The notes under the pieces were generated by a model that was not told the DNA's origin, did not search any database, and worked only from the letters and a program-made list of their open reading frames with translations. A DNA stretch of 43,002 nucleotides, taken from positions 1 through 43,002 of the IMG/VR virus record IMGVR_UViG_2740892012_000013. One strand, written 5' to 3'. Below are positions 7,749 through 9,943 of this stretch, one piece after another (position 1 is the first letter of the stretch; each line of letters opens with the position of its first letter). This stretch comes from a virus. Taxonomy: Duplodnaviria; Heunggongvirae; Uroviricota; Caudoviricetes. A program made the position numbers and the translations under genes.

Positions 7749-8444
7749 ATGACAGCTACAAAAAGCACGTCCATTTTTTCTTTCGAATCCCAAGCCGATA
7801 TACGAGTAATCGTCATAAATGGTGAGCCATGGTTTATCGCTTCAGATGTTTGTCGGGCTATAGGCATAGCAAACCATCGAGATGCTGTTCGAAAACTTGA
7901 TGATGATGAGAAGGGCGTCGCTTCAACCGACACCCCTGGCGGTGAGCAAGAATCGATCATCATCTCCGAGTCAGGCCTCTACACACTGATCCTCCGCTGC
8001 CGCGACGCAGTGACACCAGGCACTATCCCCTACCGCTTTCGTAAATGGGTTACAGGTGAGGTTCTTCCTCAGATCCGCCGCACCGGAAGTTACATTAAAA
8101 ACTCGCTCCCGCAGGAAGAACGCATAAAGATGGTTGCCGACCAGGTAGCCAACGCCACAGCATCAGCAGTGATGCAGGCAATGAAGATAGAGAACAAAAC
8201 CTACAGCGCCCCACTGAAGCCCGGCTACCGCAGTTTGATTCACTCGCCGTCTGGTGTTCTCGGCCTGACGGAGAACTCACTGCTGATGAATCTGCTGAAC
8301 CAGTTACAGGAAGACGGGCACGACGTATCGGGCGCGGCGGCGGAGCTGACCACCATGTTCTGCTACATCGTCGGTGTGAGCAAATGCCTGCGTGATATCC
8401 AGACCCACGCGGAGTACATCAACGACAAGGCAGGGTTCTTCTGA
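7749..8444 (+). CDS. Antirepressor with N-terminal Bro-N domain and shared C-terminal (ORF6C-like) domain
   Basis: N-terminus FSFESQADIRVIVINGEPWFIASDVCRAIGI...ESGLYTLILRC...PYRFRKWVTGEVLPQIRRTGSY is a classic Bro-N signature; C-terminal ~75 aa near-identical to that of 9710-10648. Confidence 0.75.
   Translation: MTATKSTSIFSFESQADIRVIVINGEPWFIASDVCRAIGIANHRDAVRKLDDDEKGVASTDTPGGEQESIIISESGLYTLILRCRDAVTPGTIPYRFRKWVTGEVLPQIRRTGSYIKNSLPQEERIKMVADQVANATASAVMQAMKIENKTYSAPLKPGYRSLIHSPSGVLGLTENSLLMNLLNQLQEDGHDVSGAAAELTTMFCYIVGVSKCLRDIQTHAEYINDKAGFF
8211..8444. repeat. Left arm of ~234-bp near-identical inverted repeat (3' end of Bro-N antirepressor gene)
   Basis: Reverse complement of 9710-9943 with only a handful of mismatches by eye. 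Confidence 0.8.
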
Positions 8445-8509
8445 CGAGCGGCGGCACAGGGATGTGCCTTTAAAATAATCATTGGCGATGTGATGTAGAT
8501 TCGCGTAAT

Positions 8510-8526
8510 ATTACCTTAAAGGTAAA
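8510..8526. promoter_or_regulatory. Operator-like palindrome ATTACCTTAAAGGTAAA
   Basis: Near-perfect inverted repeat about 40 bp upstream of the 8568 start codon. Confidence 0.55.
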
Positions 8527-8567
8527 CCTGTTTTTATTTTATACCTGTAACTTACCGGAGATTAAAG

Positions 8568-8894
8568 ATGACAAAACTTGGATTCGTGATGAGAGGTCCG
8601 GTAAGAAGCGGAACTCATGCAAAGCGTAGCAAGAGTCGTATTTTTACTGGTAAGGTTGTAGCACGTAAATCAGCTATTGGCTCGTTCAATAGTGAAAATG
8701 CGGCATTGCGCCATATTTTTATCAGCACAAAGCCAAGAGCATCCGCTGATGTGCATACAATGTCTATTCCTATCACAAAGAATATAAAGCGGATAAAAAA
8801 GCTCTCATCTGCAGAATCAAAAGAGATATCTTTCCGCCAGCTTAACTCATTAGAAACGCATATGAAGGAAGAGGAATTCGATGTTTTTGAGTGA
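8568..8894 (+). CDS. Hypothetical basic protein, upstream partner of YafO-like paralog 2 (candidate antitoxin/regulator)
   Basis: SD GGAG 8 nt upstream of ATG; 108 aa, Lys/Arg-rich; overlaps 8881 start by 14 nt; no family recognised. Confidence 0.45.
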   Translation: MTKLGFVMRGPVRSGTHAKRSKSRIFTGKVVARKSAIGSFNSENAALRHIFISTKPRASADVHTMSIPITKNIKRIKKLSSAESKEISFRQLNSLETHMKEEEFDVFE

Positions 8895-9393
8895 GTATAG
8901 CGGGAAGGTTATACCTACTGGTGAGTTTAAAACTGATGACTTTCTGATTTCGCTAAAAGATGCTTTTAAACAACACTGGCGTCATGGTCATCATCCTGAT
9001 CTGGGAAAAGATACTCTTTTTGAAAGACCAGACGAAGTATTAGGCTTCCATCTCAGAAAGGTTCATGTCAATATTGGTGAATATGCATCATATTCATACT
9101 CATGTACTGAACAGTGTTGGGATGAGTGGTCATATGGATTGATTGATGAACAAGGAAATTACAGGCCAAAACCAACCAGTAACGCATATCTCATATATGC
9201 AGTCAATGAAATAAGAGATGCAGCCTTACTAGCTTATTGGGACCCGCCCGCACACACCAAAGCTAACGCAAAAGTTTGGATGGATTCCGTATTGAATTTC
9301 ACAAAATTATTTCATGAACGAACGAATACAGCTCCACTTAGTAGAAATGTTTATCCGTGGGATTATTCGTACAAATCCAAAAAGCCTGCATAG
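8881..9393 (+). CDS. YafO-family-like toxin candidate (paralog 2)
   Basis: SD GAGGAA upstream; ...FKQHWRHGHHPDLGKDTLFERP...HLRKVHVNIGEY...YLIYAVNEIRDAALLAYWDPPAH; same motifs as 6304-6810 but diverged. Confidence 0.55.
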   Translation: MFLSEYSGKVIPTGEFKTDDFLISLKDAFKQHWRHGHHPDLGKDTLFERPDEVLGFHLRKVHVNIGEYASYSYSCTEQCWDEWSYGLIDEQGNYRPKPTSNAYLIYAVNEIRDAALLAYWDPPAHTKANAKVWMDSVLNFTKLFHERTNTAPLSRNVYPWDYSYKSKKPA

Positions 9394-9474
9394 TAGTTTT
9401 TTATGGACGAAACAAAAGTCAGTGCTACACTCATTGACGCCACATTGAGGTGGTTTATAGATGGAAATTTCACA

Positions 9475-9636
9475 ATGAAAAAAGCATTTGCTGCACTGTT
9501 CGTTTTGTTGTCTCTGGTAGCTTCAACTCAGGCCTTTGCCGGTCGTTGTCAGCACGACAGCGATACTGCCGCTGACGGCTCCCGCTGCGGTGGGCGTTCT
9601 GCGGATTCCCGCCCGGGTGGCGGTGGCATTCGTTAA
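9475..9636 (+). CDS. Small secreted Cys-containing peptide (putative)
   Basis: MKKAFAALFVLLSLVASTQAFA signal-peptide-like start then ~30 aa with 2 Cys and a Gly-rich tail; weak RBS; may instead start at 9403. Confidence 0.3.
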   Translation: MKKAFAALFVLLSLVASTQAFAGRCQHDSDTAADGSRCGGRSADSRPGGGGIR

Positions 9637-9642
9637 AAACAA

Positions 9643-9658
9643 GGCCGCGAAAGCGGCC
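9643..9658. terminator. Second copy of hairpin GGCCGCGAAAGCGGCC between convergent genes
   Basis: Identical to 6287-6302 including flanking AAGG; sits between the stop at 9636 and the stop at 9710. Confidence 0.45.
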
Positions 9659-9709
9659 TGTGACATGTCACGATAGTTCCGTTTTGCACATCCCTGTGCC
9701 GCCGTTCTG

Positions 9710-9943
9710 TCAGAAGAACCCTGCCTTGTCGTTGATGTACTCCGCGTGAGTCTGGATATCACGCAGGCATTTACTCACACCGACGATGTAGCAGAACATG
9801 GTGGTCAGTTCCGCCGCCGCGCCCGATACGTCGTGCCCGTCTTCCTGTAACTGGTTCAGCAGATTCATCAGCAGTGAGTGCTCCGTCAGGCCGAGAACAC
9901 CCGACGGCGAGTGAATCAGGCTGCGGTAGCCGGGCTTCAGCGG
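9710..9943. repeat. Right arm of ~234-bp near-identical inverted repeat (3' end of Ant gene)
   Basis: Reverse complement of 8211-8444. Confidence 0.8.

Follow-up and report, generated by a model that had tools for sequence, protein, structure and literature searches.

A shared SPC32H Ant-like domain at the 3′ ends of two convergent antirepressor genes forms an inverted repeat around an exchangeable cassette slot in an Escherichia coli prophage

Why do two antirepressor genes that begin with unrelated domains end in almost the same DNA, one on each strand, with a block of other genes enclosed between them? The question is raised by a 43,002-nt virus record, IMGVR_UViG_2740892012_000013 of IMG/VR (hereafter the window, meaning this whole stretch of DNA), which is a phiV10/epsilon15-like (Uetakevirus) prophage of Escherichia coli. 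A gene for a Bro-N antirepressor and a longer antirepressor gene on the opposite strand converge there on a 1.27-kb cassette. The original prediction, made from the letters of this DNA, described the 3′ ends of the two genes as a near-identical 234-bp inverted repeat, and proposed either recent domain shuffling or a segment that can invert or be exchanged by homologous recombination. The repeat, the protein module that it encodes and the corresponding loci of relatives were analyzed computationally. The results led us to consider it probable that the locus reflects modular domain shuffling together with rare exchange and inversion by homologous recombination, and not a programmed switch.

A repeat search of the window returned arms at 8176–8445 and 9709–9978 (270 nt, 91% complementary) and an adjoining second pair at 8446–8467 and 9686–9707 (22 nt, 95%). 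Pairwise alignment and exact counting defined the near-identical core as 8211–8467 against 9686–9943, with lengths of 257 and 258 nt, respectively, which is slightly longer than predicted. The 234 coding nucleotides of the arms differ by eight mismatches (96.6% identity), seven of them synonymous and one non-synonymous (N to H), and the longest exact run between the arms is 70 nt. The match continues for about 22 nt 3′ of both stop codons, interrupted by a single 1-nt indel and a single mismatch; this non-coding tail contains a small hairpin (GGCACAGGGATGTGCC). Outside 8211 and 9943, the ungapped identity drops to about 45%. Because the repeat search between 7000 and 11500 returned nothing else above 22 nt in inverted orientation, the arm repeat is far beyond chance. 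The GC content is 55–59% in the arms and 37–42% in the cassette genes. The coordinates predicted for both antirepressor genes proved correct (Table 1). The two proteins are indeed unrelated outside their common C-terminus, one carrying Bro-N and the other P22_AR_N, so that the AntA label originally given to the minus-strand gene has to be dropped. The open reading frames (ORFs) and PHROG matches also agree with the description of the enclosed segment as a second YafO-like pair with a small signal-peptide ORF.

The protein module encoded by the arms had no Pfam match at E ≤ 10, and PHROGs place it in two separate families of unknown function, phrog_450 and phrog_15539. Both arm-bearing proteins match chain E of Protein Data Bank (PDB) entry 5D50 ('Anti-repressor protein') over 75 residues, with E-values from 1e-13 to 3e-14, and residues 150–226 of the Bro protein and 231–307 of the P22-type Ant align with residues 3–79 of that chain. 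5D50_E is the 86-aa Ant of the epsilon15-like Salmonella phage SPC32H. SPC32H Ant, itself a tetramer, binds the repressor Rep and breaks up its DNA-binding tetramer (PMC9638917), and the alignments suggest that the fused C-terminal modules bind Rep as well. As in the SPC32H Ant–Rep system (PDB 5D50/5D4Z; reportedly described by Kim and Ryu in 2013 and Kim et al. in 2016), the window has a close Ant ortholog behind a LexA box, and a Rep homolog. The Ant domain is therefore present three times in this prophage, as a stand-alone small Ant and as the C-termini of the Bro-N protein and the P22-type Ant; the arm-encoded module is about 40% identical to the small Ant. Whereas SPC32H Ant is a stand-alone, LexA-controlled protein, the Ant domain of the arm-bearing genes sits C-terminally on Bro-N or P22_AR_N proteins under C4/isrK or sar/Arc/Mnt-type control. 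A homologous-protein search with the 80-aa module gave only short stand-alone proteins, with versions of about 95 aa in Klebsiella and Raoultella, and domain architectures were taken from the collected loci instead. No description of fusions of the SPC32H-Ant-like domain to Bro-N or P22_AR_N was found in searchable papers. The assignment of the C-terminal module to the SPC32H Ant fold family looks new. So does the finding that four types of N-terminus carry it, controlled by C4/isrK or by sar, while the phage also retains the LexA-controlled stand-alone Ant.

To compare relatives, about 170 loci were collected, namely 158 viral-contig loci (78 Bro-anchored and 80 Ant-anchored) and 15 annotated regions, of which 14 came from complete E. 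coli genomes and one from phage ZX5. Layouts were compared with the tailspike side on the left, and all counts are of loci, not of independent events. Three layouts were recognized. In the majority, layout (a), a Bro gene ending in a single arm is followed by a cassette, the small-peptide gene and the structural genes. In layout (b), which is that of the window and of 31 complete E. coli genomes, a second, inverted arm lies on a P22-type Ant gene, followed by Arc-like and Mnt-like genes. In layout (c), the inverted arm is part of an additional Bro or AntA gene that has a separate isrK/C4, and the repeat extends over about 1 kb at 83–88% identity. The arm is joined to Bro-N in 112 copies, to P22_AR_N in 33 and to AntA in six, and to ORF6N in one complete genome; many lambdoid and Stx prophages, in turn, have the P22_AR_N N-terminus with a different C-terminus. 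Iyer, Koonin and Aravind reportedly described in 2002 how phage regulators with Bro-N, KilA-N, AntA or ORF6N domains are shuffled. The present loci likewise combine unrelated N-terminal DNA-binding-type domains, of four types, with a common C-terminus. They differ from that precedent in that the module is near-identical at the nucleotide level within one phage population, and in that a putative function, repressor binding, can be assigned to it through its homology with a solved complex.

The mean pairwise identity between loci is 0.92–0.99 within the arm, falls to about 0.3 within 20 nt past its inner end (+257), and is 0.6–0.8 upstream. The segments behind the arm (97 loci) form 14 clusters with about 12 distinct gene cassettes, and RefSeq annotations in the slot include YafO, DUF2335, DUF4760 and hypothetical proteins. 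The N-terminal alleles on the left, the cassette families and the layouts on the right occur in free combination. Nord58 is 100% identical to the window over 7400–9672; its divergence, a mosaic breakpoint at the inner edge of the arm, sets in 14 nt before the right arm. The P22-immI-like module that bears the right arm is present or absent as a block. The segment is thus exchangeable, as had been proposed, with at least a dozen unrelated cassette families in the slot and free assortment with flanking alleles. Shuffling is also borne out by the occurrence of one C-terminal module on Bro-N, P22_AR_N, AntA and ORF6N. That it was recent is not, given the seven synonymous differences between the arms and an identity within genomes (95.8%) equal to that between genomes (95.5–96.1%). 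On account of the same equality we rejected the idea, which we had considered, that the arms evolve in concert or convert one another. Since within-genome identity is not raised and no homogenization signal is seen, arm-to-arm events within a genome must be rare.

Does the segment also invert? After de-duplication, the small-peptide gene has the window's orientation in all 52 single-armed loci, whereas the 36 two-armed loci comprise 31 standard, four flipped relative to the outer markers and one composite (Fisher test on flipped loci, 4/36 against 0/52, p = 0.024). Two of the flipped loci, in the complete genomes ETEC4085 (L171, CP122634) and SCU-387 (L172, CP051688), have layout (b) with an AntA-type left gene, and their junctions are scar-free, with the small-peptide gene abutting the left arm and the leader abutting the right arm. 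The third, in the complete genome CUVET21-H2 (L089, CP115343), has layout (c) with the whole 3.1-kb unit inverted, and the fourth is a metagenome contig (L023). Outside these counts, a draft isolate contig (L101) is 99.4% identical to TL-2011b (L100) with the inter-arm segment exactly reversed. Its arm is chimeric, passing from right-type to left-type single-nucleotide polymorphisms between positions ~198 and 255, i.e., with the crossover inside the arm. Orientation variants are thus limited to two-armed loci. Cassette families F1–F4 were seen in both orientations; F3 is in standard orientation in eight complete layout-(b) genomes, and stands behind the same AntA-type left gene in at least 13 complete genomes. 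Among complete genomes with the window's Bro/Ant configuration, two are flipped and 31 standard.

A search for synthetic inversion junctions, built with the Bro N-terminus and therefore blind to diverged Bro alleles and AntA-type left genes, gave six records; four were inspected, of which three were mirror-image two-Bro loci and one, CUVET21-H2, was truly inverted. Loci L047, L086, L087 and L088 had been taken for flipped cassettes and were rejected, their outer markers showing ordinary two-Bro loci in mirror image. The composite locus, in ETEC1749 (L170, NZ_CP122712.1, 4459–6000), holds two convergent arm–leader–cassette units, a YafO-type F1 unit in forward and an F4 unit in reversed orientation, which meet 13 nt apart at their stop codons, and lacks the small-peptide gene.

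Several points weigh against inversion between the two arms of one genome. The Fisher test treats loci that are not independent events, and p rises to 0.058 without the metagenome contig. The collection holds no isogenic unflipped twin of ETEC4085 or SCU-387, and each half of SCU-387 is found separately, so a multi-step mosaic origin of both flips is possible. In CUVET21-H2, the end points of the inversion lie at the outer edges of the ~1-kb repeat (isrK/C4, Bro and arm), not at those of the arm alone. L101 and L100 form the clearest pair for an inversion by the arms alone, but the draft contig of L101 ends 34 nt into the other arm, and a repeat-induced misjoin through a 56-nt identical stretch would look identical. 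No flipped copy occurs among the eight loci of the window's own cassette family, F6. Finally, within-genome arm identity that is not raised makes recombination between the two arms of a genome rare at best. The proposal that the segment can invert is supported in two-armed relatives, with flipped copies in three complete genomes, one draft and one metagenome contig, none of them of the F6 family. Having looked for low arm identity, and for a lack of orientation or cassette variants among relatives, we found neither.

In the reading that we favor, the repeat would be the coding sequence, with a short 3′ tail, of an autonomous SPC32H-type antirepressor effector domain of about 77 aa, and the shared 3′ ends form an inverted repeat because the Bro-N and P22-type Ant genes converge. 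The need of each copy to fit one and the same Rep would keep the module near-constant in the phage population. As a side effect, about 257 bp of portable homology would be placed before a conserved promoter/operator leader of about 58 nt and a variable low-GC cassette. Homologous recombination in or around the arm, by what we infer to be host RecA or phage RecT, may then reassort N-terminal domains, cassettes and right-hand modules, and where two arms are present it may occasionally invert the segment between them. Inversion would be incidental and tolerated, as promoter-like leaders of their own appear to precede both the cassette and the small-peptide gene. The window encodes a PD-(D/E)XK nuclease-like protein and RecT at 37978–39737 on the plus strand (DUF3799, 81.6 bits; RecT, 151.8 bits), which together make up a phage recombination module that can act on short homologies. 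No recombinase domain was found in any ORF of 6300–12100, and the only site-specific (tyrosine) recombinase is the integrase at 41746–43002.

The alternative that survives best, although we regard it as rather unlikely, is that the arms are alike solely because both proteins bind the same repressor, the repeat being a passive by-product without a role in recombination and the variants arising by different means, e.g., illegitimate recombination or an exchange within neighboring conserved segments. Protein-level constraint does predict that most arm differences are synonymous, as seven of the eight are, and this explanation also fits the lack of concerted evolution within genomes and the equal cassette diversity of single-armed prophages, which shows that cassettes can be exchanged without a second arm. 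However, such constraint does not account for near-identity running 22 nt past the stop codons into non-coding DNA, nor for the 92–99% conservation of synonymous sites across the population. Moreover, mosaic breakpoints fall exactly at the arm edges, flipped segments are scar-free at the inner arm ends and confined to two-armed loci, and the arm of L101 is a left/right chimera, all of which argue for recombination in the arm. Very unlikely, in our view, is a recent local duplication, in which one antirepressor 3′ end was copied in inverted orientation in this genome, e.g., at cassette insertion, making the repeat young and lineage-specific. The 96.6% identity of the arms beside the unrelated remainder of the two genes would suit it, but the two-armed layout recurs in many viral contigs and in the 31 complete genomes of E. 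coli, arms of different genomes are as similar as those of one genome, the cassette also occurs in single-armed genomes, and an entire P22-immI-like module, of which the right arm is a part, is either present or absent as one block. A programmed invertible switch of the Mu G, P1 C or Hin kind, changing the operon of the cassette or the antirepressor C-termini, is the least credible explanation, since, even though a gene cassette is bracketed by inverted repeats and both orientations exist in nature, the segment has none of what marks Mu G, P1 C, Hin and the shufflon (an adjacent invertase, crossover sites of tens of bp, both orientations common), no gene for an invertase or any other recombinase lying within or beside it, its arms being 257 bp of coding sequence, its flipped state being rare (the four of 36 two-armed loci, and two against 31 complete genomes), and its inversion leaving both proteins unchanged save for a possible N/H swap and presumably also expression, given the cassette's apparent promoter-like leader.

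Table 1. Features of the antirepressor region and of the repressor gene in the window
Feature	Position	Strand	Evidence and remarks
LexA box, perfect	5986–6001	+	CTGTATAAATATACAG; 0 mismatches to CTGT-N8-ACAG; upstream of small ant
Stand-alone small antirepressor, SPC32H Ant ortholog	6023–6280	+	PDB 5D50_E, E = 8.6e-47
First YafO-like pair (189 aa + 179 aa)	6304–7339	−	phrog_1651, phrog_9503; optional accessory genes inserted before the Bro unit
TTACC-N5-GGTAA palindrome, candidate Rep operator	7465–7479		Directly after promoter-like −10, upstream of isrK/C4/Bro
isrK-family small RNA with terminator	7516–7591	+	Rfam, 72.3 bits (gathering score 50); terminator 7572–7585
C4 antisense RNA, P1/P7 immI type	7616–7701	+	Rfam RF01695, 77.7 bits (gathering score 45)
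Bro-N antirepressor, 231 aa	7749–8444	+	Bro-N, aa 17–107; SPC32H-Ant-like C-terminal domain, aa 150–226
Left arm	8211–8467	+	Last 77 codons, stop and 23 nt of 3′ untranslated region with small hairpin
Cassette leader	8468–8527	+	Promoter-like TTGGCG / TAATAT hexamers; ends in palindrome TTACCTTAAAGGTAA (8511–8525)
108-aa ORF, possible antitoxin partner, low GC	8568–8894	+	phrog_5933; no other family match
170-aa YafO-like protein	8881–9393	+	PF13957, 19.7 bits, below the cut-off of 25; phrog_1651
53-aa signal-peptide protein	9475–9636	+	phrog_14503 'membrane associated protein'; WP_000708858 in relatives; conserved right end of slot
Intrinsic terminator, leftward transcription	9642–9659	−	7-bp stem with six GC pairs; TTGTTTTTAA tail
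Right arm	9686–9943	−	Reverse complement of left arm
P22-type antirepressor, 312 aa	9710–10648	−	P22_AR_N, aa 12–121 (PF10547, 153.8 bits); SPC32H-Ant-like domain, aa 231–307
sar antisense RNA	10650–10717	+	Rfam RF00262, 45.2 bits (gathering score 43); between arc-like gene and ant
Arc-like ribbon-helix-helix protein, 67 aa	10721–10924	−	phrog_228 Arc-like repressor, E = 2.5e-5; upstream of ant
Arc-domain protein, 153 aa, Mnt position	10979–11440	+	PF03869 Arc, 54.3 bits; divergent from arc–ant
Rep repressor, presumed target of all three Ant-domain proteins	36789–37373	+	5D50_A, E = 4e-42, residues 1–190

The two arm-bearing genes belong to control units of different kinds. On the left, the C4 element ends 47 nt before the Bro start codon, and isrK and C4 precede every Bro or AntA unit examined in related loci. 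In the immI regions of P1 and P7 (c4-icd-ant) and in isrK-orf45-anrP of Gifsy-1 (IsrK: PMC4825925), an antirepressor gene is likewise preceded directly, on its own strand, by RNAs of the C4 or isrK families. Unlike in P1/P7 immI, the downstream protein in the window is Bro-N (AntA in relatives) fused to the SPC32H-Ant-like domain, and no icd-like ORF was identified. In the related phage ZX5, the 231-aa Bro-N antirepressor gene is ORF4, a positional homolog likened by its length and slot, and its overexpression lowered lysogen counts about 1000-fold (PMC9782041). Just upstream of the ZX5 antirepressor, where the window has C4, a 37-aa 'ash family protein' ORF is annotated, which is probably a mis-annotated RNA gene.

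On the right, the window shares with P22 immI (mnt / arc–ant, sar) the P22_AR_N domain, the Arc-like gene upstream, a divergent Arc-domain gene in the Mnt position, and sar in the arc–ant gap. The sar RNA is antisense to the ant leader and recurs before every P22-type ant in related loci, including L170–L172 (57.2 bits in L172). P22 Ant carries P22_AR_C, whereas the window's Ant is without it and has the SPC32H-Ant-like module instead, and the window phage is a phiV10-like podovirus, not a P22-like one. In both the left unit, which resembles P1/P7 immI and Gifsy-1, and the right unit, which resembles P22 immI, the effector end is replaced by the Ant domain of the resident phage. An IS66-family insertion lies in the P22-type ant of L007 (23CRST038) and an IS3-family insertion in the second Bro gene of L088 (UTME-14); because these insertions interrupt them, the extra antirepressors are dispensable in lysogens.

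The third copy of the domain, the small ant, lies 22 nt downstream of the LexA box (258 bp, 85 aa) and is annotated as hypothetical by RefSeq in relatives. Ants of this small kind are reported to be LexA-controlled (PMC7380047), and the gene is probably an SOS-responsive inducer of the prophage. Neither the Bro gene nor the P22-type ant has a LexA box upstream, the only perfect box in the region being the one that serves the small ant. The partial LexA-pattern match nearest to Bro is a one-mismatch site at 7628–7643 within C4, and no partial match precedes the P22-type ant either.

Palindromes lie around rep, at 36671, 36719, 37431 and 37493. A TTACC-N5-GGTAA palindrome occurs 14 times in the window with at most one mismatch, compared with 0.73 expected and at most three in 100 shuffles, and its sites are 5932–5946, 7340–7354, 7465–7479, 8511–8525, 26827–26841, 30008–30040, 34326–34402, 36334–36348, 36671–36733 and 37431–37507. 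Copies flank the rep gene, and others stand directly 3′ of promoter-like −10 elements before the small ant, the upstream YafO-like pair (whose promoter region thus also has the palindrome), the isrK/C4/Bro unit and the cassette leader. This distribution suggests the palindrome as a candidate Rep operator, and the accessory cassettes would therefore be controlled by the repressor.

The cassette slot itself begins, in most families, with the leader of about 58 nt, which exists in two allelic forms. Its promoter hexamers were read by eye, and the computational promoter scan did not list them. The ortholog of the 170-aa ORF is named 'YafO family toxin' in RefSeq, and the upstream toxin-like ORF at 6304–6873 belongs to the same PHROG, 1651. 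The upstream YafO-like pair is absent from most relatives and found in only a few. In the window, the two paralogous YafO-like modules, 6304–7339 on the minus strand and 8568–9393 on the plus strand, flank the Bro unit in opposite orientations, and both toxin-like ORFs are assigned to phrog_1651. The terminator at 9642–9659 serves the ant gene, and in single-armed phages the late genes; terminators also lie within the cassette sequences of L171 and L172. A PADLOC analysis of nine cassette or neighboring proteins gave no meaningful defense-system match. Like morons and other accessory-gene hotspots (the boundary sequences of lambdoid phages; P2/P4), the locus is a slot at a constant position that takes many low-GC cassettes unrelated to one another, and it has promoter-like leaders, terminators and conserved bounds. 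Unlike typical moron slots, it is bounded on the left by an antirepressor gene's 3′ end together with a leader ending in a candidate phage-repressor operator, and its cassettes would be Rep-controlled, whereas morons are constitutively expressed in lysogens. It further differs from typical hotspots in that a minority of genomes have the slot bracketed by an inverted copy of its boundary, which permits inversion.

Some observations concern the neighborhood and variant layouts. In twelve layout-(c) loci (L006, L020, L021, L051, L063, L070, L071, L075 and L086–L089), a truncated P22_AR_N fragment (about codons 9–141, annotated as a pseudogene) lies divergent from the second Bro/AntA unit, and looks like a scar left when a P22-immI-type module was rearranged earlier. 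In L098 (IMGVR_UViG_2713896799_000015, 5542–6936), the right arm and the P22-type Ant come almost immediately after the small ant, with the whole Bro unit, cassette and small-peptide gene absent, which is either a deletion variant or an alternative layout. The tailspike gene beside the region (3176–5827, minus strand) is highly mosaic in relatives, with only the N-terminal ~430 nt conserved and with annotations that vary among endosialidase beta-propeller, tail fibre domain and others. A tRNA gene lies inside the structural/packaging region at 27164–27237 (Rfam, 73 bits).

Domain shuffling of the Bro-N/KilA-N/AntA type, accessory-gene hotspots and repeat-mediated inversions are each already well known separately. 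What looks new at this slot is its arm-plus-leader boundary, which is sometimes bracketed by an inverted copy. We tentatively suggest a wider arrangement, in which one repressor is wired to three inputs (SOS/LexA; C4/isrK; P22-type Mnt/Arc/sar) through a reused Rep-binding Ant domain, and in which the arm and its Rep-operator leader would act as a portable docking unit that places any cassette under Rep control behind any antirepressor, with exchange or flipping by RecA or RecT. If this were true, the inverted repeat would be part of a population-level cassette-shuffling device and not a mere accident of gene order.

These results provide a putative concrete function, repressor binding, for a module that is unmodelled in Pfam and of unknown function in PHROGs. 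Prophages of the phiV10/epsilon15-like type, common among pathogenic E. coli, can carry up to three antirepressors that would act on one repressor in response to different signals, and this arrangement bears on how and when such prophages induce. The repeat is a known hazard in the short-read assembly of these prophages, and it offers a natural example of how a coding repeat of about 257 bp would drive rare inversion and exchange. Moreover, the locus represents a well-bounded accessory slot in which at least a dozen cassettes are interchangeable and are probably controlled by the phage repressor, which makes it useful for mining phage accessory or anti-defense genes.

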